A stretch of 50,201 nt of DNA, counting the filler, from Sphacelaria rigidula (lineage: Eukaryota), in the NCBI GenBank assembly GCA_964200075.2. It is 3 parts of 3 records of this genome, joined end to end, with 100 filler letters (N's around TTAATTAATTAA, not from the genome) between each part and the next. Parts side by side here need not be neighbours in the genome. Positions count along the whole stretch, not along the records: positions 33,537 to 50,201 come from CAXNAA020001284.1; 2 more parts are not named here. One strand, written 5' to 3'. A program made the translations under genes and the position numbers. Below are positions 9,501-50,201 of the stretch, in pieces. The number at the start of each line of letters is the position of its first letter. The stretch's first letter is position 1. The notes under the pieces were generated by a model. That model made no database searches and was not told the origin of the DNA. It worked only from the letters and a program-made list of their open reading frames with translations.

Positions 9501-9794
9501 ATTGTTTCCCTTACAAATTGCAATCCAAGGTCGGGTTCATTTCACCACGCTATTCGAATGCTTGGGAATTCGTCTCAATCCGAGATTCCAAGAGGTCAGG
9601 GGTTGAGTAAGTGTTTTCGGTTTCCTCACAAGATGCAGATCAAGATAGGGGCTCGGGATGTTGGCTGATGCCACGCTCAGAGCGACTTCCGAGGTCCATA
9701 ATCTTTATTTCTATGGTTGAAGGGGCTTCGGCGGAGGGGACGATCGCCTGTTCCGCTTCGCGCGCGGGGTGGGCGCGGCGGGTTACACTTGCGG

Positions 9795-10035
9795 GGGGGG
9801 GGGTCCTCATGACCATGCTTGCCATAGCCGTCAGACCATTGACCTCGCATCCCTACAAAGCCGGAACGGAGCACGCCGGGTTTTCGCCGGACCAGGCTCG
9901 CACTCAGTCACCAAGCGCCGTGGTGTGTTCGGCGAGTCGCATGAAGGGTGAGCAGCATCCTGCCAAGATTATTCGACCCGAAGCCTACTCATTACCTGGC
10001 ATTTGGATGACAGCCTGCACTGAGCCGCTTATTTT
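9795..10035 (+). repeat. Dispersed repeat, copy of 49870-50100
   Basis: Shares TTGACCTCGCATCCCTACAAAGC, CCGGACCAGGCTCGCACTCAGTCACCAAG, GTGTTCGGCGAGTCGCATGAA and GCATTTGGATGACAGCCT. A partial, internally duplicated copy lies at ~10310-10380. Confidence 0.9.
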
Positions 10036-16669: not shown

Positions 16670-16769
16670 NNNNNNNNNNNNNNNNNNNNNNNNNNNNNNN
16701 NNNNNNNNNNNNNTTAATTAATTAANNNNNNNNNNNNNNNNNNNNNNNNNNNNNNNNNNNNNNNNNNNN
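16670..16769. other. Artificial contig spacer
   Basis: 44 N + TTAATTAATTAA (stops in all six frames) + 44 N. Confidence 0.98.
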
Positions 16770-26900: not shown

Positions 26901-29900
26901 GCATGAATGACATGTGATGACACGGTGAAAATTGAGTTTGGTAGCTAAGGTGATCATACGACCTTGTAGGCACAAGAGTGCCGACTGAAACCATTTCAAC
27001 GCGAACGTTTACCCAGTCAAACTCTACCGATTTCGTTCCATGTTACAGGAGTTCAGATTGGACGAGGGCGTGGATATCGACACCACAGACGATGGCTACT
27101 ACGTCGGCTGGACGGCTTCCTCGGAGTACATGCGGTACACCGTCGACGTCACAGAAGCTGGTGAGGGTCGGAAGTATAGATCGATATCGGTAACGACGCA
27201 GCGCATCGTCGATGTTTTGTGTCGCTGCACGCCGAATGCCGAGCATGCAAGACAGACCACATCGTGACCATATTGACACTACACACAGCCTTCAGCTCTC
27301 GCGTATCGTACTCGATGCGCCATGTGTATGCGTGTCCTCCATGTATCTGGATGCTCACGCCTTGCCGCACGTCACGAGAATCGAATCTCTGTTCGCCTTC
27401 CACCGATGGTCACCGATGGTGTAACTTGAATGCAGCGGACGCTTTCGACTTCGAGTTCGTGGTGGCAGTTCCTCGCAACCGTAGCCCGGCCTTTCGAGTA
27501 GTCGCCGGTGGCTCTGATTGCACGGACTATGACACGGACCTGAGCGGCGTCGTGCAGCCGTCGACCACGGGCCCATCATGGTATGGATTCGAGTCATTCT
27601 CAGTGTGAGTGGCTGGAACGACGGGTCAGCACGTGGCACGTTTCCCCCAGATTTGGGGTCTTGGAGTTGGTTTGTACATACAGATGCCCCTGCTCTATCG
27701 TGGGGGTAGTATGTAACGTGTAGCTGTGCACCATTTCTCGTCATCGCGAGTGTCTTGGCCATATTTCGACTGGTGGGCCGGACGCGATCATCAGCTACTT
27801 CTCGTTCATGCGCTGGGTACTCGGTTGGGGTATCTAGGCGGTGTCGTGAGCGGGGCAGAGGCGCTACTCACTGTCAGCAGTGTGCCTATTTCGGCTACAC
27901 ATGTCACCAACACAGCATGTGTGCCTCAGATATCGAGGGAGAAATAGGTTGATGCCGTGAGATCATGACCTCGTCCCGATGAAGGCGAGGTGTTCGAATT
28001 CTGGTAGTTTAGTGTTAGTGCTAGCTCCCGAGCACACCCTCGCGTTCACCTCGACTCTCGAGCATCAAAAACACATTTCCAATATCCTCAAGCGTTACTG
28101 TTCGCTGCTATTCCTCTCGTCAGACAAGCTGGAGGGGACGGCGGTCTACCGGCCGGTCCCGCCGTCCTGTTCTTCTGTACCGAGTCCTCCGGCTTCAACA
28201 TCGATTCGTTCACGATGACCGTCTCTAGCGATGATGACGGTAGTGCATACGAGGGAGGGGCCGATGTTCCCGGTACAATCGAAGCGGAGAGGTTCGACAA
28301 CGGCGGACAAGGCGTTGCATACAGTGATACCGACAGCAGCAACAAAGGCAGGGTGAGTTCGCGGTAGGACTTCAACGGCGCAATAAATATATCGCTCAAA
28401 CGCGGGGTCATCTTGCTATTACCTGGCAAAGGCGCTCACGATAAGGCAAAGTCCGAATAGGGACGATTTGGGGAGTTGATACTGCAGGCGCTCTGTAGTA
28501 TCTAGACCTCTGGGGTAACCTGGTGTAGTGAGTACTCTGGAGTATTCAGTACTTCAGGTGATCTGAAATAATCAGGATTTGGGCAGTCGATATTTCGGGT
28601 AGTCAGGAGTATCCGGTATCTTCGGCAATCGAGTGCTCTGGGTGCTCTGGAATACCCAGTATGTTGGGCCGTTGATACTCCAGATACTCGGGAATGCTCA
28701 AAATTTGTATTTAGCAAATAATACTGGAGGTACTCGAGGATATTCGGTATTCCGGCACTCGATACTTCAGGTACTCTGAAGTACAGTATGCGAGATATAG
28801 TAGTTTATATCTGAAATAGGAGATGCTTTTAATTGTTTTCGTAGTCAGCGATTTTGAATGTTTTTTCGCGTGCCACCGCTCATCCCAGCAAGCCGTTGAT
28901 CCAAACGCTTGGGATTCGGGAGATACGAGGCATCTGCTCCACATTCCGAAACATAAATCGTCTCTGCGCTCAATGTTGAATGACTTCCGAAATGAGTCGA
29001 AATGGGATGTTATAGACCGTTTTTGGTCCAAGATACATTTCTTTTCGATTGTAACGCAATGCATAGGTGGGAAAAAATGATAGAGGGTCCGTAAAATCAT
29101 TCATGAGAGTGATTGAAATCGGTGTACTCTCGTCTGTGCAATGCAGAGCTCGGTTGAGCAACCTTCGTTTTTGGGTTCTTTCCTGAATTTTCTCGTGTAG
29201 TACCCGTCCTTAACGCTCAAAAGTCCTAGCGTCGATATGTATTGCGAAGAGAAGCGGGTCGTGCTCGGAACACAATCCTCCATTGTTGTTGTCGGGGTGA
29301 TACGACGTAAATACCTTGTTCATGAAGGGGTGTTGTGGACCATCACTGGTTAAAAATAGACAGTTTTTTGGCTCTAGCGCAATAAAAAGGTGGAAATTGA
29401 TAGAAGCAGTCATTTTGATTTGTTCATGAAAACGATTGGGGTTGCTTCAATCGAGAATGAATACTCGAGGGTCAGAACCTGGCGCAGGGAAGTCACAGGA
29501 CCCCCGAAAACCGGTCAGCCCGTCAGTCCTTCCAAAATGAGCCCAGGTGTGATGTTATTTCGGAATGAGGAGGGGAAACGTAGTACCTCCCGATCCCCAA
29601 ACTTTGGGATCAAACGTTCCCTGGGATGAGCGGTGGCATGCGCAAACACTTACGAATATCCCCGACTACGAAATAACTACGAAAATCTCCTACTTCCTCT
29701 GTCCGAAAGTAAAGGTCCTAATGGGGGGCACATCATATCTCGCCACTTGAGTTGCCTACGGTGCTAACGTTAGGTTCGCTGAAAAGCTATTTATACGGTG
29801 ATGCTCGTGAAACAAATCCGACTCGAACTTACCGAGAAGTAGTGGGTCAAAAAGTGGGAAATTTGGCGGGTTTTGGGGATTTTGTTCATGTCGATGGGCG

Positions 29901-31692
29901 ATAACGACCTGGGGTGTGGAGCATACCGTGGTATCGGCGGAGCAGAAGGCAGGAACGTTTGAAAGGGTGGTGAAATATGATCAGCGGGCCTTTACGAAGG
30001 CCTGGAACTATCTAGCATCAAGCCCCAGTGACGGCGGAGACGATTAGCGAAACTGTTTTTTTTGTTTTTTCTCGACATTTTTTCGCTGCTCTGTTTTCGG
30101 CCGTTCATACATGCAGGGTGGTATGCGCAAAAACAAATATATACGGGTTCCTACTAAAAAACACTGCCGAAGGTTGTAACGAAATTACCGCCTACGGTGC
30201 GGGACACCGTCAAAGGTCTGTGTAATCATCAGGATCTTTACTGATGGGACATATGAAGTATTTAATATGCAAACTGCTGCATCCAAAGCACCTATTGTGT
30301 CCCCCACCAGGGCGTTTTCGCACAGGTAGAGACACAGTTGATGCCGAGGCCTATATCTGCGATCTGGACTACATCGCTTTTCTATTGATCATTTCATTCA
30401 ACGGCGGTTTACTTTTTATGAGAGAATGTTGCTCTGAAGTATCGCATCGTTTCGTTCCATGTTACAGGAGTTCAGATTGGACGAGGGCGTGGATATCGAC
30501 ACCACAGACGACGGCTACTACGTCGGCTGGACGGCTTCCTCGGAGTACATGCGGTACACCGTCGACGTCACAGAAGCTGGTGAGGGTCGGAAGTATAGAT
30601 CGATATCGGTAACGACGCAGCGCATCGTCGATGTTTTGTGTCGCTGCACGCCGAATGCCGAGCATGCAAGACAAATCACATCGTGACCACGTTGACACTA
30701 CACACAGCCTTCAGCTCTCGCGTATCGTACTCGATGCGCCATGTGTATGCGTGTCCTCCATGTATCTGGCTGCTCACACCTTGCCGCACGTCACGAGAAT
30801 CGAATCTCTGTTCGCCTTCCACCGATGGTCACCGATGGTGTAACTTGAATGCAGCGGACGCTTTCGACTTCGAGTTCGTGGTGGCAGTTCCTCGCAACCG
30901 TAGCCCGGCCTTTCGAGTAGTCGCCGGTGGCTCTGATTGCACGGACTATGACACGGACCTGAGCGGCGTCGTGCAGCCGTCAGCCACGGGCCCATCATGG
31001 TATAGATTCGAGTCATTCTCAGTGTGAGTGGCTGGAACGACGGGTCAGCACGTGGCACGTTTCCCCCAGATTTGGGGTCTTGGAGTTGGTTTGTACATAC
31101 AGGTCTTCATACTCTGAATCTCCAGCAAAGTGGTTTGCGGGATGTTACGCGGCAGTTTTGTTTCGGCTGCTGATAGGGGTTCTTGGATCGTGTTGTGCTG
31201 GGCACAATCTTTGTCCGTTTTCCGCGGCAGGACCCAGATCGTGTTGTGAGCAAGGGCTGGAAATGCTCGCGTTGCTGGCGTTTGATCTTCCTCACAAAAT
31301 ATGCTTGCCCCGAAGACGGGTGTGAGATGCCCAATGGTGAAAGCTAGACTCCCTTTCGACTTTACACGTGTGAGCTCTTGAAATCATGCGCGTGAACGCT
31401 CGTCCGCCAGAGTAGCTGTCAAGATACTTTCGTCAGCCATGAGTCACTTCCTTACATTTCATCCTTGTTGCCGTTCCCACACAGCGGAGGGGGGAATTTC
31501 GTCAAGAACTTGCTTTTGTGCATCTTCGCCATAGCCGGGCCACTTTGACGGATCGCCTTGAAATTGTTTTTCCCCCCACGCAGACTGGCAGGGGGCACTG
31601 GTGGTCTCCCGGAGGGTCCTGCTACCTTGTTCTTCTGCACAGAATCTCCTGGCTTCAACATCGACTCCTTCACCATGACTGTTGCTACGTGA
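17022..31692 (+). CDS. Endo-1,3-beta-glucanase (glycoside hydrolase family 81) with three C-terminal CBM6-like modules; spliced gene, 5'-partial (N-terminus runs off the contig edge)
   Basis: Manually spliced GT-AG exons in consistent phase: 17022-17129, 17468-17628, 18193-18327, 18938-19031, 19708-19791, 20099-20224, 20607-20702, 21514-21696, 21971-22051, 22743-22811, 23407-23507, 23899-23992, 24340-24501, 25338-25449, 25819-25987, 26411-26660, 27049-27160, 27436-27604, 28124-28352, 30468-30579, 30855-31023, 31584-31692 (TGA). They sum to 2925 nt, an open frame of 974 aa. GH81 motifs seen: LLHYALPHH, SVYFGGK, YYNDHHFHYSY, FRSFDWFSGHSWARG, DQESTSEDVN, DYTTWFG, EYIHGIQ, DDGLSRAWAL. Confidence 0.93.
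27031..27683 (+). repeat. Intragenic duplicated block, copy 1 (two exons plus intron sequence)
   Basis: Nearly identical to 30450-31102 (offset 3419 nt), with about 10 substitutions counted by eye. Confidence 0.97.
28480..28800. repeat. Degenerate GAGTA(C/T)/TACTC-rich low-complexity repeat
   Basis: Recurrent short motifs GAGTAC, GATACTC and GGTACTC across ~320 bp of intron. Confidence 0.55.
28819..29690. mobile_element. Non-autonomous TIR DNA transposon in an intron of the GH81 gene
   Basis: Imperfect inverted repeats of ~140 bp (28819-~28958 vs ~29551-29690; shared core TGCCACCGCTCATCCCAG). The termini GGAGAT...ATCTCC are flanked by TA on both sides. Confidence 0.75.
30450..31102 (+). repeat. 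Intragenic duplicated block, copy 2
   Basis: Nearly identical to 27031-27683. Confidence 0.97.
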
Positions 31693-33436: not shown

Positions 33437-33536
33437 NNNNNNNNNNNNNNNNNNNNNNNNNNNNNNNNNNNNNNNNNNNNTTAATTAATTAANNNNNNNN
33501 NNNNNNNNNNNNNNNNNNNNNNNNNNNNNNNNNNNN
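33437..33536. other. Artificial contig spacer
   Basis: Identical 100-nt N44-TTAATTAATTAA-N44 structure. Confidence 0.98.
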
Positions 33537-37849: not shown

Positions 37850-38260
37850 CAGCAACTGTGGGTGCAAGCTAGAGTTTGGCACCACAGTAAAAGTAGCCTC
37901 GGTTTACCAGTAATGGTTTTACTGTACACCGGGGCGGGGGGGGGGTAGCTATGCATCAAAACAGTGGTGGAAGTCGTTAGTAACTCGGGGTAACATAACA
38001 GGCAAGCTGCAGCGACAAGGAGCAGGATTTCTGAAGGCAGCAAACCCTAGTGACAGCCGGACGCTACCGATGAAGATTCTGGGGTCAGCGGTAAACCCGA
38101 TTCGGTTCCACCCACAGGACAGAGTAAGGAAAGTATGGGTTAGGGTGGTAGATGGATTGCCGTACGGATTCATTTTAGGGGCAAGTTTCTTTAAAAGGAA
38201 CGAGAGTACACTGTCTTTTGAAGGTCGATCAGGATTTCGACCTTCGCCGAAGGCCCCGTG
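37850..38260 (+). pseudogene. Retroviral-type aspartic protease domain, inactivated
   Basis: VMVLLYTGAGGGSYAS at ~37910-37957 corresponds to the LLDTGA motif with D replaced by Y (TAC at 37925-37927). Downstream LPYGFILGASFF matches the ILGxxF motif. Confidence 0.8.
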
Positions 38261-38889
38261 GGTAAAATTCGTGTCTAATGGTTCACCAAAACTCGGAGCT
38301 GTTGACACCGATCACCTCACCGGCCAAGGAGATTCGGCAAGTTGGGATCTCTTCTGTGCTGTCAATCCAAGTGCGCTCAGTGACGACCCGACGGGTGTGT
38401 TGTCGGGAGAGAGCGATCTGGCAGCATGGGATGAGGTGTGGAAGAGCCTTGGAGCGGCGTGGGAGGACGACGCTACACGTCAGTGGCTTCTACGGCTGAC
38501 GGAGGACGCACGGTTAGAAGGCTTCGTTAGCGAGCTAGTTCCAGGCTACGTGCGAGGTCCTCAACCGCAGGAACGTCAACTCGTGTTGATCAAACCTCGA
38601 AAGTTGTTCGATTTAGATGGGGAAGCCGAGATAGGGGTAGCCAGGGGAGAGCAGTGCCGTTAGTATGTAAGGTGGTCAACACGGCTAAGAGTGCTCGCCT
38701 TGTGAAGAAAGGTATTGTAGTGGCGAAGGTGGGGGCCATGAATGTTCGAGATCGCGAGCGGTTGCAAAATCTGCACGCGTCAGACTCGGGCACCACGCTT
38801 AAGTCGAGGCTGGAGGATCGAGGGACTGCGCCAGCGCCTGCCCAACCGCCGCCGGAAGCGACGGAAGTGGAGGAAAAGGACACCACGGA

Positions 38890-39913
38890 GGCCACAAGAG
38901 TAGATCTCACGGAGGCGAACATGGGTCAGTTGGGTTCGGCGCAGAAGACCCAGCTGTTATCCGTGTTAAGAGACTTCAACGAAGCAGGTCTTCTCGCGGT
39001 GGATCCCAAGCGGGTGAAAGCCGCGCGTGGGGAACCGTTGCGTCTACGACTGAAAGATCCCCGATGCCGGCCATTCGCTGCCGGTACTGGGCGGTACTCG
39101 CCAGGACAAGAAACAGCTATACAAGACGAGGTCCGGAAACTCGCGGAGCGGGGGATCATTGAGCCGTCGACGTCCGCATGGGCAGCTGCTTGCGTCACGG
39201 TGTGGAAGAAGGACGGTAGTTTACAGTTGTGTCAAGATTATCGTGGACTAAACGAACTTCTCGAGTCGTATAGCGGTGGTTTGGGGGATATGCAGACCAT
39301 GTATAGTGGCCTAGCGGGATCAAAGTACTTTACGAGAGTGGATTTAGCGAGTGGGTTTTTCCAGTTGGAAGTGGCGAAAGAGGACCGACACCTTACCGCC
39401 TTTCGCGATGCGAGGGAGCACTTATGGCAATATCAACGTTGTGGATTCGGACTCAAGGTATCACCAGCGACATTTCACCGAACAGTATCCGAAGCGTTGT
39501 TGCCGGCGCGGGGTGTCAAAAATTGATTGGATGATATCTTGTGGCCTAGTGCGACTTTCGCCAGCCACATGACGGGGTTGAGAGTTGTCCTCTATTGCCT
39601 GCTGAAGGCCGGCCTCACCGTGAATTTCCATAAATCACAATGGTGCACCCAGCAGCAGGACTTCGTAGGGATGACGATCGATGCGTCGGGAATACGACCT
39701 TCCCAGTCTAAGATCGAAGCTATCGCTCAGTTGAAGGAGACGCGGAGAGTAGAGGAGCTAAGGTGGTTTCTAGGTATGACTGGATATCTGCGGAGGTACA
39801 TAAAGGAGTACAGTAACACGGCAGCACCGCTCACAGACTTGCTGAGAGACCCGCGATTCGCCTTCAACCGAGCGCGGAGGATGGGGATTGCATGGGGGGG
39901 GCAGCAGCGATAA
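38890..39913 (+). pseudogene. Reverse transcriptase domain (Gypsy type), disrupted
   Basis: GIIEPSTSAWAA, KKDGSLQLCQDYRGLN, YFTRVDLASGFFQL, TAFRD, GFGLKVSPATF, N*LDDIL (stop at 39524-39526), FLGMTGYLRRYI. Confidence 0.95.
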
Positions 39914-39925
39914 GCATTCCTAGAC

Positions 39926-40342
39926 TTGAAGAGCGCTCTGATGTTGTATCCGATCTTGGCGTACCCGGATTGGAATGAACGATTCATGCTACACTCAGAC
40001 GCTTCAGAGTTTGCAGCAGGGGCCGCCCTGGCCCAAAAGGCGGATGAGAGGGAATTGATCATCGAATATGCTAGTCATAGATGGTCGCGGGCAGATGAAG
40101 AAAGATCAGCATCAGAGAGAGAAGTAGTCGCTGTTTTGTGATCCGTGGAGCGATTCAGATCGTATCTATGGGGACGAGACTTTACGCTAGTCACATATTG
40201 CAGTGCGTTGACGTGGCTGTTCCGTAGTTAAAACTTGTCGCCTAAGTTCCACCGGTGGGCGCTGAGATTGATGGAGTATGATATGGTCCTCAAGTGGAGA
40301 GCTGAACGCGAACACCAGTTGCCGGACGCCCTGTCCCGGCTG
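39926..40342 (+). pseudogene. RNase H domain (Ty3/Gypsy), disrupted
   Basis: FMLHSDASEFAAGAALAQ, EYASHRW, SEREVVAVL*SVERFRSYLWG, RWALRLMEYD, PDALSRL. Stops at 40139 and 40229. Confidence 0.93.
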
Positions 40343-40603
40343 CAAGGGAGCCAACCCAGGGGAAGTGACATTGACGTGTCATTCCCTAACGATGATACTG
40401 AAGCTGGACCAGGCGGAGAAGGAGGACCGCAAGGACCCAAACTGGGCGGGATGTTACTGAAGGAATAGGAGGCTGAGTATCCGAAAGAATCCGCAGACGT
40501 GATGGCATTAGCGTTGGAGGAGGCCAGCGCGTTGTATTCACCGGAAACCAGGGACGGGGTTACTATTAACTCGGAGAATCCTGTGACTGGACCGGTTAAG
40601 CAA

Positions 40604-41497
40604 CGACCTCCCGCTTTGATTGTCCATTGTGGAAGCGAGGGAAGCATTCTGACCGCGGAGAAGTTCTTGGAGGTGGTAGCAGCCACCGATGCAGATTGGA
40701 AGGCGTTGGATTGTGTCAGGATGAACCAAATTGGATAGGGAGTCAAGCTTGTACGTACGACTCCAGCGCGCCCTTCTTTCCACAACTTGGTGGAGGAGGT
40801 GCAACCAGAAGTGCTGGTAGGAGATACGAGTAGGGTTGCCTCCGTTGATAAAGGTGCGGGGGAGTCGGAATCCGTAGACGGTGTCCGAGAACTGGTCGAG
40901 TCGTTCCTCTTCTTAGTCTCGGCGACAACTCTGATCTTGGAGAGTACGGGTGTCAAGGTGCACTCTCCGGGTTGGAATGAGAGCGTGACTCCGTTGCTGA
41001 GAGGAGTCGGCTGCTGTATCCAGCAGGCATCCATCTCCGCCGTGCAGGTGGGCGCCCCGTACTGAAAGGAACGGACCTATGTGGTCGCTCTGAAGGCTGG
41101 TTGGCAAGGAGAAGAACCACTGCGCGCATGGAGGCAGCGAGTGGAAGCGTATGCTGTTACCTGCCCCCCGTTGGGTCAGCTCTTGGGGCGGACTGGCACC
41201 TATTTCTTGGAGCCGACAGGGCAAGACAAGGCTATTCACAGTTTCGAAGATCCGATGCCCAGGTTAACTCGTCCTCGGCTGACGAGAGGGAAACCGCGAC
41301 GCGAGGATTTCACACCCCACAGGGCGGACGCAGGGGTATGGGAGGAAGCAGCAGAGCTGGAAAGAGTCGACTTTGTGAGAGTCGCGACCAACCTCGACCA
41401 CTACGAGACCTAACCCACGGTGAACCCCGACGCTATGCCAGATATTGTTGCTAGTTTCGTCCATCCGTGGATGATGGGGGTGGTTATATCAAGCTTG
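40604..41497 (+). pseudogene. C5 cytosine DNA methyltransferase-like domain inserted in frame in pol between RNase H and integrase
   Basis: Ordered motif equivalents: I LIVHCGSEG; II EVVAATDADWKALDCVRMN; IV PEVLVGDT (no PC); VI TLILEST; VII LLRGVGC; VIII ISAVQVGAPY*KERTYVVA; IX ELERVDFVRVATNLDHY; X DIVASFVHPWMMGVVISSL. Same frame as RT and RNase H. Stops at 40736, 41063 and 41411. Recognised by eye only. Confidence 0.68.
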
Positions 41498-41914
41498 GAA
41501 GTGGAAGGTTTGTTGAGCTCGACTCAGATTCGGAGTGAGGACATAGGTCTAAGTGCGCTAGCGACGATATGGCCGCATGAGGATGAGTTGCCAGAGACTT
41601 GGGGAGCCGCCGTAACTCGCACGTCGGTTCCCGAAGCGGAACATAAGTCGGACCAGGACTCTGGTGGGGGAGAAGCTTCAGCTGAGGAGCCAATACCAGG
41701 TACAGGTAACCCTAGAACCGTTCTCGAACAAGCGAGGGCGATCCTGATGGACAAACCACAACTCGTTTTATTACAAGAGCGGGACTTCCGTCTTGGACCC
41801 ATCAAGGATAGGTTAAGAGAGGGGCTCAAGGATGAAGGAGCTGGCAAGGGGCGGGATGCGTACGTGCTAGATGAGAATAATCTTTCATGGTACACCTCCC
41901 CTAAGGAGCCAGCC

Positions 41915-43056
41915 AAGTCAGCTATCCCACGCAGCCTAGTGCCAGGGCTGCTGGCGTGGGTGCACACTATGCACGGGCACGCTGGAGTAATGAGGACGAC
42001 TGCAGTAGTCAACGCAAGGTACGAATGGTCTGGTCTTTTCGCCGATACTCCCAAATACGTGTTGTCTTGTGGATGTCGCCGACGCAAGCGTATCAACAGT
42101 CACACCCTAGCGATGCGGCCCGCCCGATTCCTGCGGGCATGGGGGAGATGTTAGAGATGGACATACCGGACATGAAGCAGGTTTCCGCCTCGGGCAACAG
42201 ATACTTGCTGATCATCGTGGATCGAGCAACCAAGTTTTTCTTCGCTTCCCCATTGGCTGCCAAGCTCACGGTGCCCGTTGCGAAATGTCTGCTGAAGCTC
42301 TTCTTGACGTTTGTGGTACCCTACTTTTTAAGGAGTGACGCTGGGGGGGAGTTCACGTCGGAGGTAGTGAACCATGTATGCCAGTGGATGAAGGTGAAGC
42401 CGGATCATGGTCCGGCAGAGCACCCTCGCGGTCAGGGCGCGATAGAGAGGTACGGGGGATGGTTGCACAACGTTTTAGTCGAGCTCTGTAAGCAGTGGCC
42501 AGAAAGGTGGGATGAGTACGTAGACCCCGCTGTGTGGGTTCACCGTACTACTCCCGACCCGGCATTGCCTAATAACCCGACTCTATTTAAGCTGCTTTTG
42601 GGGCGCGAGCCACGCACCCAAATAGACGCTGTGTCACCTGAAGCGGAGTCTCCACCGTTGAACAATACGGTGGAACAACAGCGCCAAAACCTGAAGGAGG
42701 TTCACGAGCTGTTGGCCCAATGCCACAAGCAAAGGGAAGAGGTAAGATCGGCTAGAAATGCCGAGCTGAGTCGCCAGTCGGCGGGGTCGCGAGCTCAGGT
42801 AGGGGATCTGATGTTAGTGAAGGAGTCCCACAGCTCCCTTGTACACGAAGATGTGCTGACTAAACTAGTGCACGACTTGTGGACGGAACCATGGATTGTA
42901 CAGCAAGTGGTGATACCCGGTCTTAGCCTTAAGGTCAGCATGCAGGGGCGCAAGGTACGAGAACGGACGGTGTCGGCAGCCAATGTAAAGAAATTTCATG
43001 TGCGCCCTGAACAGCTGCGACATCCGTTTCCGGACGAGTACTCTCATTTAGCATGA
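41915..43056 (+). pseudogene. Integrase (HHCC zinc finger, DDE core, GPY/F-like tail), frameshifted
   Basis: VHTMHGHAG...YVLSCGCRRRK (HHCC). Frameshift near 42140-42146. EMD...NRYLLIIVDRATK, LRSDAGGEF, HPRGQGAIER, QVGDLMLVKE...WTEPWIV. Confidence 0.93.
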
Positions 43057-43101
43057 GGGGATGATTTGGGGTTGGCTGAGGAGATCGCATCCGTCCCGCA
43101 A

Positions 43102-43272
43102 CTGTACACATTGACAGATAGGAAGGTGGTGCTAGGATCAGGATCGTCATGGGAGTGGGCCTATCGGGGGTTATTTCATGACGGAGACAAATCTCACTGG
43201 CTTTCTGAGGAAGTGTTGGATAGGTTCACTGGGTTACAACTGGATGTGTTTCATGCTTTGTGGGAACTATAT
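43102..43272 (+). other. Chromodomain-like module C-terminal to integrase
   Basis: LYTLTDRKVV...WEWAYRGLFHDGDKSHWLSEEVLDRF...LDVFHALW follows the chromodomain pattern (Y-x-hydrophobic-x-D-R...Y-x-x-x-F/W-x-G...W...helix) at the position used by chromoviruses. It is divergent. Confidence 0.55.
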
Positions 43273-43365
43273 CACCCGCAAGCCAAACCACGCCCATCCG
43301 TTACGCCATCTCAAACAGAAAGAGACCCTATTGCTCGGGATAAAGCTTTGCGACAGATTTCCCGA

Positions 43366-43518
43366 GGGACTAAAATCCGTAAACGGTTTGTGGACAGCCA
43401 AGGTGAGCAGCAGGAGTTCGACGGGGTGGTGTTCGATTTCCGTCAGCCGTATTTTCGTATCAAGTATGAGGATGGGGATTGGGAAGAGATGACGCCGTTA
43501 GAGGTGCGGAAATATGCG
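43366..43518 (+). other. Tudor-like (PTM/DIR17-type) module at the polyprotein C-terminus
   Basis: GTKIRKRF...EFDGVVFDFRQPYFRIKYEDGDWEEMTPLEVRKY matches the GxxVxKxF...FxGxV...YxVxYEDGDxEEL signature. Confidence 0.75.
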
Positions 43519-43572
43519 GTGAATGGGCAGGGTACCGGAACAGTTTCGGGGTTTAACTGGCGGAGAAAAGGG

Positions 43573-43730
43573 ATCGTTTCTGCACGGTGTTTAAATTCCC
43601 TACGTGGTCTAACCCGGCAGAGCGGTCAGCAAGACAGCGGATCCCCCCCGGGCGGGATAAAATCGTTCTTGCGCGGTGTTGAAATGCCCTACGCGGTCTA
43701 ACCCGGCAGAACGGTTATCAAGATCGACGG
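43573..43730 (+). repeat. Two ~68-nt direct repeats (period 89 nt) at the 3' end of the Gypsy internal region
   Basis: ATCGTT..TGC.CGGTGTT.AAAT.CCCTACG.GGTCTAACCCGGCAGA.CGGT.A.CAAGA at 43573 and 43662. Confidence 0.85.
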
Positions 43731-45110
43731 CTACACCAAGACGCCGAGTACTCGGGAAGAGGGACATGGTAACGCGGTGATCCATCGTGTGAACCCCGGT
43801 CAGTCCCAGGGTTTTTCAATCCCAGGAGTGAGCGGGGGTATTACGGATCGCGGCGTGGAGTGGTGGATAAGGGTAGTACGATGATGGGCCGTCGATTTCA
43901 AAACGACACTACGCGCCCGGAGGGCTGATTGCGGGAACTGGCCAGTACCGCAATCAGAGGTGAGGATGATGTAATCCGTCAAGAGACGGAATACATCAAC
44001 ATGCCTCTTTACATCCGGTTGGATTCGGTTCTTTCCAGGGATCGATTCAATCAGATGTCACCCTGGTGTTCACTTCTCTGAAGTGCGAGTCAATACCACC
44101 AAGAGAAAAAGTGAAATCGAATCGGCGTGAAGCTATGATCAAGAATATCCTGACGCTTGGCTTGTATCGTTCTGCGTTGGACTTTCCCCACGTGCTGTGA
44201 GCCTACGATTGTTTCAGGAATAGCGGTAAGACTGTAACGATGTTTGATTCAAGCAGCAGATGCAAGGGGGTCGAAATGATAGTAGAACGAGCTATGTGCA
44301 CAAATGAAATGGTGGAATATGTAGTCAGATAGTGAGAATAAGTCGTATCGGCATAAGGTAGCGAAACTTCGTGACTTGCATGACCGAAATTCTGCCGTTG
44401 CTTCGCCGTAGTACTCGGCTTGCACAGTAGATATACGCAAGGTGGACAACAACTATGACCAACACTATTCTGTTTGTATCGGAGACAACTTCAAGCGTCA
44501 AGCAGCTGCATGCTGCACCGAGGGGCCCCATATCGGGATATGACGGCACAACCCCCCCCCCCCCAGGTCGCCCGAACCTGATTTTTGGGCCATAGGAGGG
44601 GAGGGGGGGAGAGAAACCCGGTTACCCTATTTGAGGAGGGGGGGTACCCCCCTGATCGATGGATGATGGTAATGATAGTTGCTGTGTGTGCGCACAGCGG
44701 TCCTAGAACATAAGTCCATGCATTGAAAGTATGCTGCTTGCTGCTGTCTTCGACACTGCGTACACTGCGTACCAGCCGCAGCGTGACACCTTCGGTGGTA
44801 CTACCTGCGCTCACTGCACAGCGGCAGGGCGCAGGGTGACCAAACACACCGTAGGACGTCAGATCCTTAGCCTATTCTTGCCCTGCATTGATTCCGCGGT
44901 ATCCTGTGCAGTTCGCCATATCATGGACGCAGCCACTTGTACGTGCGGCCAACGTGTACGCAGAATATCACCCCTCCCTGCGCGCTATATCGCCACGTCA
45001 CATTTTGTAAAGGTGCATATCCGTGTTGCAGCTACAGCGTGCGTTTGCCCCAGGGGGCGCACACAGGAGTGAAAGGCCGCCTCCGCCGCTGTTATGGCTA
45101 CCTACCTAGG

Positions 45111-45226: not shown

Positions 45227-45560
45227 TGTGCGCAGTAACCTTTTAGCATCGTGTTCGTGCTGACTATAGGAATCTTTGTCGAGGGTCTGGTACATTTCCA
45301 CATGTATATAATGCAACATCCGGGCGAACTGTGGGTGAGGCAATTGTCAAAATATTCACCTGCAAACTCTGCTCTAGTGCCCTGTAAGTTGATATCGCTA
45401 GAAGGACACTACCTTAACCATGTTGCCGGCTGCCAGACTATCAGGACGTAGAATCCGCTAGCATTGCTACTGTCTGTACGGGGATGTTGCCCCCTTTATG
45501 GGGTACGTGGGGAAGGGTCCGTGGCAAAACGCAGTGGTCGCGTCAAGCAGCTGCACGCCG

Positions 45561-45941
45561 GGCGTTCTCACTCAAGACTTCGATTTGGAGGATGATCCTA
45601 GGTAGGCAGCGGCAACTTCTCTGTGTCCAGGTGCCCCTTGGAGCAGGATGCGTTTGGTTTCTGTTTGAGAAAGTTATCCCCCCCAAAACGAAGTCAATAG
45701 GGGTTCTACAGAGGGGATATATAGCAGAAGAAAAAGTCGAAAAAATCGCTGGGCGTTCTCACTCAAGACTTCGTTCGATGTGGAGGATGATACTTGGTAG
45801 GCAGCGGCAACTGCTGTGCGTCCAGGTGCCCCTTGGATTAAGATGCGTTTGGTTTCTGTTCGAGAAGGTTATCCCCCAAAAAACGAAATCAACAAGGGTT
45901 TTAGAGTGGAAAAATATAGCAAAAGAAAGTCGCAAAAATCG
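45561..45941. repeat. Tandem duplication, two ~191-bp units
   Basis: Units start GGCGTTCTCACTCAAGACTTCG at 45561 and 45752. Confidence 0.92.
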
Positions 45942-49719: not shown

Positions 49720-50100
49720 AGGTACACTGACTCTGCTTGACGAGGGTTGACACGGTGCGGGAGTGCTGTTGATCATGACCCAATCCGCGACACGGAAATG
49801 TAAGACGAATACCATACCTAGGGAGAGATAGGTTAATCCCCTGATACCACGGACTCGTCCCGAGGAGTGAGGGGGGACGCGTACTCATGATCTTGCATGC
49901 CATAGTCATGAGACTATTGACCTCGCATCCCTACAAAGCGGGACGGAGCACGTCGGGTTTCCCCCGGACCAGGCTCGCACTCAGTCACCAAGAGCAAAGC
50001 GCCGTGGCGTGTTCGGCGAGTCGCATGAACGAAGATTGTTCGGTCCGAAGCCTACTGATTATCTTGCATTTGGATGACAGCCTCCAATGAGTTGATTTAT
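49720..50100 (+). repeat. Longer copy of the dispersed repeat family
   Basis: 49870-50100 matches 9795-10035 directly. 49720-49870 matches 46505-46650 in inverted orientation. Confidence 0.85.
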
Positions 50101-50201
50101 TCTCTCACCATGGAGGGGTTCCGCCTCCCCCCCCCCCCCCCCCCCCTAAAGGCGAGGCCCCCCCCCCGACCCAAGGGGGGGGGGGGGGGGGTGGTGGGGG
50201 G

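Follow-up and report, generated by a model that had tools for sequence, protein, structure and literature searches.

A cytosine-5 methyltransferase-fold domain with non-canonical motifs in the Pol polyprotein of a brown-algal Ty3/Gypsy retrotransposon

The pol region of a Ty3/Gypsy retrotransposon in the brown alga Sphacelaria rigidula raises the question of why a domain that resembles a cytosine-5 DNA methyltransferase (C5 MTase) carries motifs that active enzymes of this class do not have, and whether these motifs reflect the ruin of one copy or a state of the whole family. The element, one dead copy from a high-copy Ty3/Gypsy family, lies in a stretch of 50,201 nucleotides, filler included, from assembly GCA_964200075.2 (the window hereafter), and Pfam domains are recognised on both sides of the MTase-like insert (40601..41521, + strand). 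A first-pass annotation of this DNA, made from the sequence alone, proposed that the domain was catalytically dead by design and not just by decay, and that the functional ancestor may have carried a pseudo-methyltransferase used as a DNA- or chromatin-binding module or as a decoy. The reading preferred here, to which a probability of roughly 0.5 is given, is that the insert is a rewired C5-MTase-fold module kept by selection, which would bind cofactor and engage DNA and would not carry out classical C5 methylation in the clade to which the window belongs. This reading builds on the fold, the motif states found across the family, the privacy of the stop codons to the window copy and the conservation of the domain; cofactor binding, DNA binding, loss of activity and a role in integration are all predicted from residues and fold.

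Identity of the inserted domain

The Pol order of the element is protease, reverse transcriptase (RT), ribonuclease H (RNase H), C5-DNA-methyltransferase-fold domain, integrase and Tudor, and the MTase-fold stretch sits between RNase H and integrase, in the same frame as RNase H and the zinc-binding domain of the integrase. A single reading frame (frame 2, + strand, about 38531 to 42154) is interrupted by stop codons only, and no frameshift separates RNase H from the domain, since one tblastn high-scoring segment pair to P0006 (relatives are designated by P numbers) spans 40601-41521; the frame is thus unshifted, as the first-pass annotation had claimed. P0006 is an uninterrupted gene model of 1169 residues from Cladosiphon okamuranus that contains RT, RNase H, the domain, integrase and Tudor. 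In the window, in-frame stops are found in pol at 39524, 39911, 40139, 40229, 40466, 40736, 41063 and 41411, the last three being inside the domain and that at 40466 at its N-terminal edge, and the integrase carries a frameshift in addition.

The AlphaFold model of the window's domain, built on a 66-sequence alignment, has a predicted local distance difference test score (pLDDT) of 80.8 and a predicted template modelling score of 0.79, and it shows the two-lobe C5-MTase fold, with a Rossmann catalytic lobe and a target-recognition lobe. Foldseek returned at least 500 matches to this model at E<=0.001 (best E 1.5e-10), and among the matches listed (ranks 1-50) all are C5 MTases, Dnmt2, DNMT1/3/5, MET1 or DIM2. 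Structural alignment with VIA-align gave Z 22.8 and a root-mean-square deviation of 3.1 over 266 residues for M.HaeIII (1dct_A; model 47-347 on chain 1-324) and Z 22.1 over about 266 residues for M.HhaI, with both the catalytic and the target-recognition lobes matched. A search with ESM features pointed in the same direction (29 of 30 matches are PF00145 clusters), and so did weak PF00145 matches in relatives, which were obtained for 7 of the 66 alignment members (E<=1) and for 9 of 52 proteins scanned singly, all of them on profile positions 79-189; P0029 alone exceeds the curated PF00145 cut-off (23.2 versus 22 bits). Plain sequence comparison was silent: Pfam scans of the window pieces and of the read-through gave no methyltransferase match in the window copy, and neither phmmer with the window's domain nor hmmsearch with the 66-sequence family profile retrieved any PDB sequence at E<=10. 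Alignment of the family profile with hhalign gave weak values in all cases (E 0.43 against E. coli Dcm alone, 0.0025 against six Dcm-type enzymes and 0.0014 against the N-terminal halves of these), and the three runs share a single register, which is also that of the first-pass annotation and agrees with the strand order of the model. In this register the glycine loop falls on DLFAGIGG, D-x-D-W...N on E-W/N of motif II, G118-D-T-S121-R on G-F-P-C-Q, E158-S159 on E-N, and K200-E-R202 on R-E-R (from PQHRER of Dcm). The MTase-like identity, at first a guess, is therefore agreed upon by Foldseek, VIA-align, the weak PF00145 matches, ESM features and profile-profile alignment.

To judge from the predicted fold, the inserted domain is a descendant of a cytosine-5 methyltransferase. 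An origin from some other Rossmann-fold protein, such as the adenine methyltransferase (DAM) domain of long terminal repeat (LTR) elements, could be invoked because the window copy has no Pfam match there and the searches of PDB by sequence and profile were empty, and because DAM domains have been reported between RT and integrase in LTR elements of chlorophytes and ochrophytes (bioRxiv 10.64898/2026.05.21.726589). Such an origin is nonetheless hardly credible, given that both C5-MTase lobes are matched with Z of about 22, that other families are absent among the matches listed, that PF00145 is the sole methyltransferase family detected in more than one relative (Methyltransf_34 appears in one member, at E 0.33), and that the Asn-Pro-Pro triplet named by the same preprint as the DAM signature lies outside the family's conserved columns. 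DAM identity was rejected on the two-lobe match and on the lack of this triplet among the conserved columns, and a chance resemblance of motifs was rejected as well.

Motif states of the family and lesions of the copy

An exhaustive search over 1.84 billion representatives yielded 131 relatives at E<=1e-3, of which 49 reach E<=1e-10, and every named relative is a brown alga, among them Nemacystus decipiens and C. okamuranus (P0082, P0115 and P0125). Among longer proteins a word-indexed homologue search detected no relative, its alignment-based version gave 2 that were already in the set, and scans of metagenome contigs (with alignment A3 and with the window's open reading frame (ORF) of 108 residues) confirmed no relative. 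In P0125, residues about 870-987 match profile positions 40-124 and then 318-352, seemingly without the core of the domain, a gap that seems to be either a natural deletion derivative or an artefact of the gene model.

The states of the family were counted in an alignment of the relatives anchored on a hidden Markov model, with the relatives that cover a given column as denominator. Motif I of the window copy (40625..40645, aligned to DLFAGIGG) reads HCGSEGS, and the family form is G-C-G-G-G-G-S, with Gly in 30/39, 33/41 and 35/42 relatives at its glycine positions. The motif II pattern, D-x-D-W...R-x-N, is conserved family-wide, and together with this loop it provides the residues by which binding of S-adenosylmethionine (AdoMet) is recognised. 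The strings on which the first-pass annotation was built are all present in the window. Read-through of frame 2, with X at stops, gives Q-PEVLVGDTSR-VAS at 40802-40843; PEVLVGDTSR, with Thr-Ser at the place of the Pro-Cys of motif IV according to the profile alignment, occupies 40805..40834, and the start noted at 40802 is the preceding Gln codon. The position of the Pro (120) is held by Ala in 33, Thr in 12 and Pro in none of 64 relatives, and that of the nucleophile (121) by Cys in 27 and Ser in 17 of 59, the Cys standing in an Ala-Cys context. Motif VI, placed by hhalign and by the match of relatives to Pfam profile positions 95-189, reads LEST in the window (40937..40948), so that Glu is retained and Asn replaced; 49 of 62 relatives retain the Glu, and the next residue is Cys in 31 and Ser in 17 of the 62, one relative having Asn. 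Motif VIII appears as P-Y-stop-K-E-R (41057..41074, with the stop at 41063-41065), with Lys and Arg at the two Arg positions of QxRxR; these positions are Lys in 43/58 and Arg in 43/57 relatives, and the Gln of Gln-x-Arg-x-Arg is absent. At the motif X position VAS replaces I-G-N (41447..41455), a placement that comes from the fold alignment to model residue 347-356 and from motif order and is not a residue-by-residue alignment; the two Gly-Asn positions are occupied (n=40) by Ala 16, Glu 10 and Val 10 at 328 and by Asp 15, Glu 11 and Asn 6 at 329. Judged by these residues, the family keeps the AdoMet pocket of motifs I-II, the motif VI Glu and the basic pair of motif VIII, and it has lost the Pro, the Asn of ENV and the Gly-Asn across its whole breadth, with the Cys persisting in about half of the relatives.

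Within this family the window belongs to a clade of 20 relatives with at least 42% identity to it (about 42-64%), which has a Shimodaira-Hasegawa approximate likelihood-ratio test (SH-aLRT) support of 98 in a 36-row tree. All five members that cover motif IV (P0003, P0013, P0032, P0047 and P0065) have Ser or Thr at the nucleophile position and none has Cys, and the residue after the Glu varies in the clade (Ser, Cys, Phe, Asp or Gly).

Other copies of the element were collected as contig pieces with at least 80% likeness from three DNA runs, two of them coded as the same organism and one as an algae metagenome. The domain is matched by 369, 332 and 334 pieces in the three runs and therefore belongs to a high-copy family; a further run (X6), guessed to be RNA, gave 18 pieces of 80-95% likeness that are indistinguishable from DNA. 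Near-fixed differences, that is, sites that set the window apart from almost every other copy, were taken as the best-supported 40 of 390. All four in-frame stops of the domain, including that at 40466, are among these 40, together with two codons of motif I, at which the other copies fit the glycine pattern of the family, and with T62, three residues past motif I; none of the 40 falls on the codons of motif IV or on the Glu-Ser codons of motif VI. They are spread over codon positions 1, 2 and 3 as 14, 17 and 9, as is expected of random private decay, and comprise 27 non-synonymous and 8 synonymous changes and 5 in stop codons. The in-frame stops and the two motif I lesions are thus private to the window copy. 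Thr-Ser and Glu-Ser, on the other hand, represent the state of the element family and not lesions, because none of the 40 near-fixed differences lies there and because of the states found in relatives.

These data bear on the simplest explanation, according to which the odd motifs are mere decay of a dead copy whose living element had canonical PC, ENV and GN. The copy is clearly dead, with its eight stops and integrase frameshift, and two of its motif I residues are indeed private lesions, but no relative out of 64 has the Pro, Ser or Thr at the Cys position is common to the relatives of the clade, and motif IV and the Glu-Ser pair are free of differences among the best 40 of 390, which makes this explanation very improbable. 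The first-pass view that the domain is dead by design has to be divided accordingly. What stands is that the loss of Pro-Cys, of the ENV Asn and of Gly-Asn is not decay of the copy (Pro 0/64; Cys 0/5 in the clade); what does not stand is its extension to the wider family, which is not clearly dead, as Cys (27/59), Glu (49/62) and motifs I, II and VIII are conserved in it. The inspection of the motif IV Pro-Cys across family copies that the annotation had recommended was equally two-sided, with no Pro in 64 relatives and with Cys still present, as Ala-Cys, in the fraction just given. The word dead can be applied with some confidence only to the window's clade and only to classical C5 methylation. 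The pseudo-methyltransferase ancestor is unproven in view of the retention of Cys, Glu and motifs I, II and VIII in the wider family, and the deeper ancestor, on the same residues, may have been an unconventional enzyme.

Constraint on the domain and its possible role

Two protein-level proxies speak against neutral evolution of the domain, an outcome that the first-pass annotation had named as contrary to its view. In tblastn comparisons with P0006, identity is nearly the same for the domain (29.3% over 314 residues) and for RT/RNase H (29.5% over 421 residues), and the values for integrase and Tudor are 41.3% and 39.7%. The second proxy uses the 70 columns in which conservation reaches 70% or more when the 111 relatives that do not belong to the window's clade are compared: the window retains 53 of these 70 residues, and the 20 relatives of its clade keep 228 of 380 cells at conserved columns (60%) versus 347 of 1381 elsewhere (25%). 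Because the residues kept include the motif II pattern, the Glu, Trp169, Lys200 and Arg202, the Cys-less clade appears to have stayed under much the same constraint as the family. It could be argued that the domain of this clade is a relic that has drifted neutrally since the loss of the Cys and is still recognisable because too little time has elapsed, as the residue after the Glu varies inside the clade and some family-conserved columns are altered clade-wide (positions 249, 271, 324 and 327, for example). This seems improbable, since conserved cells are preferentially kept in a clade whose members share no more than about 42-64% identity with the window, since the clade-wide changes are shared substitutions and not scatter, and since the long branch of the clade (98 SH-aLRT) indicates that much time has passed.

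In the preferred reading of a rewired module kept by selection, the remodelled active site is common to the whole family: the nucleophile position is not preceded by Pro, the Glu is not followed by Asn, and motif X is without Gly-Asn. In the clade of the window the nucleophilic Cys is replaced by Ser or Thr, and classical covalent C5 methylation would be lost. In C5 MTases the Cys of motif IV attacks C6, the Glu protonates N3 and the arginines of motif VIII position the flipped base (PMC4802922), and classical covalent methylation is not expected in this clade because the motif IV Cys is missing. The title of PDB entry 3ubt describes a Cys71Ser M.HaeIII crystallised bound to DNA, and engagement of DNA without the Cys is therefore possible in principle. 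The domain would thus have been retained by selection as an AdoMet-binding, DNA-engaging module (of the base-flipping type) of the Pol/integrase complex, with the C-terminal Tudor reader as its probable partner in holding or choosing target chromatin or the cDNA.

Several points weigh against this proposal. A conserved AdoMet pocket together with the Glu and the Arg suits an enzyme better than a mere binder, and since 27 of 59 relatives have the Cys, it may be that the entire family is active. Rare minority copies with Cys may exist among the copies of the same organism, and many relatives are short ORF fragments of uncertain integrity. The register of motif IV depends on the strand topology of the model and on a profile alignment whose statistics are weak (E 0.0014, probability 17%), and within the core of the model confidence is lowest in the catalytic loop (mean pLDDT 61 over residues 121-130).

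The main competitor of a non-catalytic module is continued enzymatic activity, with the domain acting as an AdoMet-dependent methyltransferase of an unconventional kind in the lineages with Ala-Cys and Glu-Cys at least, and perhaps also in those with Ser; its substrate might be cDNA, an RNA-DNA hybrid, RNA or a tRNA primer. This is a serious possibility that is nevertheless rather doubtful. It is favoured by the conservation of the motif I Gly loop, of motif II, of the Glu (49/62) and of the basic pair (Lys 43/58, Arg 43/57), and by the presence of Cys both at the nucleophile position (27/59) and directly after the Glu (31/62). The two Cys residues tend to co-occur (both in 12 relatives, only one in 6 and 3, neither in 15; Fisher p 0.006, uncorrected), and the best structural matches include Dnmt2, which acts on tRNA. 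Reither et al. in 2003 are said to have found some remaining activity in a Dnmt3a variant that lacked the Cys of motif IV. RNA 5-methylcytosine methyltransferases use two Cys, one from motif IV and one from motif VI (PMC2836557). Against an enzyme speak the lack of Cys at motif IV in the window's clade (0/5), where the residue after the Glu varies as well, and the family-wide absence of the Pro, the ENV Asn and the Gly-Asn, residues that almost all active C5 MTases possess. The association of the two Cys is not significant once kinship is taken into account (4 independent pairs, median p 0.5), and a joint change could also be explained by contact between motifs IV and VI, of the kind seen in the N120-P80 hydrogen bond of M.HhaI (PMC4802922). 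Brown algae, moreover, have been reported to be without cytosine methylation (PMC12477816, PMC13076208). Coupled loss of the two Cys was accordingly set aside as a result, the raw p of 0.006 not being upheld by the independent-pairs test on the tree, and is kept as a lead only. The sister relatives P0018 and P0037 (96 SH-aLRT) have Cys at both motif IV and motif VI in one case and Ser at both in the other, a joint change within a close pair.

A bolder version of the enzymatic alternative is that brown algae, which are considered to retain no DNA methyltransferase other than DNMT2, nevertheless carry in a high-copy Tudor-Gypsy lineage a cryptic C5-MTase-fold enzyme with a hybrid active site, combining the motif IV Cys with Glu-Cys, that is, a Glu of the DNA type joined with a second Cys of the RNA type. 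The Ala-Cys/Glu-Cys lineages would be active on cDNA, RNA-DNA hybrids or RNA, which might explain the low-level non-CG 5-methylcytosine (5mC) reported in kelp, and the Ser lineages, including that of the window, would be inactivated DNA binders in which the two Cys tended to go together. This idea is unlikely as it stands.

The first-pass annotation had also taken the richness of the element in CG dinucleotides as fitting an absence of self-methylation. The observed/expected ratio of CpG amounts to 0.93 for the element and 0.87 for the domain, compared with 1.01 for the remainder of the window, and it lies between 0.85 and 1.18 in every full 2-kb bin (the final partial bin of 201 bases, 50001-50201, has 0.52). 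It is therefore correct that the element is not depleted, but the rest of the window is equally undepleted and nothing in these values is specific to self-methylation; CpG richness is a property of the genome and not of the element. This absence of depletion fits the published lack of cytosine methylation and of DNMT1/3/5 in brown algae (PMC12477816 and PMC13076208 for the former, PMC13076208 for the latter). The decoy role finds no support, because the surveys report brown algae to be without DNMT1/3/5 (PMC13076208), and a genome undepleted throughout takes away its rationale.

The element, its surroundings and its place among known systems

The remaining parts of the element are in keeping with a Ty3/Gypsy order that ends in a C-terminal Tudor domain. 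The decayed RT and RNase H (38870..40120, + strand, frame 2, with the stops at 39524 and 39911; tblastn to P0006 29.5% over 421 residues) are recognised by Pfam as RVT_1 (39236-39508 and 39527-39679) and RT_RNaseH_2 (39914-40135), both on the + strand. Downstream of the domain, on the same strand, the zinc-binding Integrase_H2C2 (41924-42088, frame 2, Pfam 4.8e-08) is separated by the frameshift from the integrase catalytic core, rve (42142-42426, frame 1, Pfam 9.8e-08), and PTM_DIR17_Tudor (43366..43509, + strand) is fused to the integrase at its C-terminus, with 27.4 bits versus a Pfam cut-off of 27.2 and a tblastn match to the C-terminus of P0006 of 39.7% over 58 residues. No LTR pair was found around the window copy by repeat search or by self-BLAST.

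The interval 38001-44000 differs from its flanks in composition, with a strongly positive GC skew (0.14-0.17) and 54-55% GC on the coding strand versus about 50% GC and a skew near zero or negative. A 62-bp unit is present twice with 89-bp spacing and 85% identity (43573-43634 and 43662-43723), overlapping the 3' end of the Tudor-bearing frame and extending a little beyond its stop, and this repeat at 43573-43723 may be part of the 3' untranslated region of the element. Further downstream lies a tandem duplication (45556-45941) with a unit of about 195 bp and 84-85% identity. Elsewhere in the window, two direct repeats of 653 bp (27031-27683 and 30450-31102) share 98.5% identity at a distance of 3.4 kb and have the look of the terminal repeats of another LTR element, short and younger than this one, and a dispersed repeat of about 235 bp (9790-10024 and 49868-50091, 79% identical) is found close to both window ends. 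N runs occur as four stretches of 44 N, in two pairs, at 16670-16769 and 33437-33536.

Retrotransposons with DNA methyltransferases have been described before, namely KnitGypsy-Dnmt3 in Klebsormidium nitens and SymbioLINE-DNMT and SymbioDIRS-DNMT3 in dinoflagellates (PMC5890265), as well as EpiLTRs with a DNMT in Cymbomonas and Euglena (bioRxiv 10.64898/2026.05.21.726589). The element described here shares with KnitGypsy-Dnmt3 a cytosine-MTase-fold domain in a Ty3/Gypsy Pol polyprotein, lying in the pol frame of the retrotransposon and in the same order in the uninterrupted P0006, and it shares with EpiLTRs the position of the MTase-fold domain beside a chromatin-reader domain. The known retrotransposon DNMTs are reported to be found by ordinary profiles, to keep the key residues, to evolve with Ka/Ks <0.2 and to methylate CG in yeast (PMC5890265). 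In contrast, the window copy escapes Pfam, Pro-Cys, the ENV Asn and Gly-Asn are missing from its whole family and Cys from its clade, its host group is reported to be without DNMT1/3/5 and 5mC, and its reader is a Tudor and not a chromo domain.

A closer likeness in architecture is offered by Gypsy-10_Ec32, the Tudor-carrying Gypsy lineage of Ectocarpus, which is reported to measure 11,528 bp, with LTRs of about 636 bp, to have 87 copies and to have a homologue in Tribonema (PMC12477816). Both are brown-algal Gypsy elements whose pol has a Tudor after the integrase (in the window as RVT_1, RT_RNaseH_2, Integrase_H2C2, rve and PTM_DIR17_Tudor), and Gypsy-10_Ec32, with its unusual length of 11,528 bp, could accommodate an additional domain; a term search of the text and supplements of PMC12477816 gave no mention of a methyltransferase in Gypsy-10_Ec32. 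Architecture and host group would place the window element in the same lineage.

Compared with the C5 MTases themselves (M.HaeIII, M.HhaI and DNMT1/3/5) and with Dnmt2, the domain has the same two-lobe fold and the same order of motifs I, II, IV, VI, VIII and X, and it has in common with them the motif VI Glu, the motif I glycine loop and an acidic motif II, with basic residues also at the motif VIII positions. It differs in that Pro-Cys is replaced by Thr-Ser in the window and by Ala-Cys in other members of the family, Glu-Asn by Glu-Ser or Glu-Cys, and Arg-x-Arg by Lys-x-Arg without the Gln; motif X has no Gly-Asn, and identity to solved enzymes is only 7-15%. An MTase fold retained under selection without its catalytic nucleophile is also found in DNMT3L and NSUN7 (PMC12804707), inactive paralogues that serve as partners or binders. 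These two are host genes, whereas the domain is part of a transposon polyprotein. DNMT3L has, in addition, lost the cofactor-binding motifs, and the family described here keeps motifs I-II.

No description of the domain was found in the literature searched, which included PMC12477816 with its supplements, PMC13076208, PMC3145265 and PMC5890265 and had figures and Repbase entries outside its scope. The domain thus appears to be an unreported retrotransposon DNMT module, cryptic and rewired, and without the nucleophile in the window's clade. The known retrotransposon cytosine methyltransferases belong to a few lineages in which DNA is methylated, and are canonical and active, whereas this one comes from a group reported to be without DNMT1/3/5 and 5mC, and it is too diverged for DNMT profile searches, yet as conserved as RT/RNase H. 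If it is a non-catalytic binder, a transposon would have turned an enzyme into a targeting or DNA-holding part beside a Tudor reader; if some lineages are active, the surveys in which brown algae are called free of DNA methyltransferases would need to be revisited.

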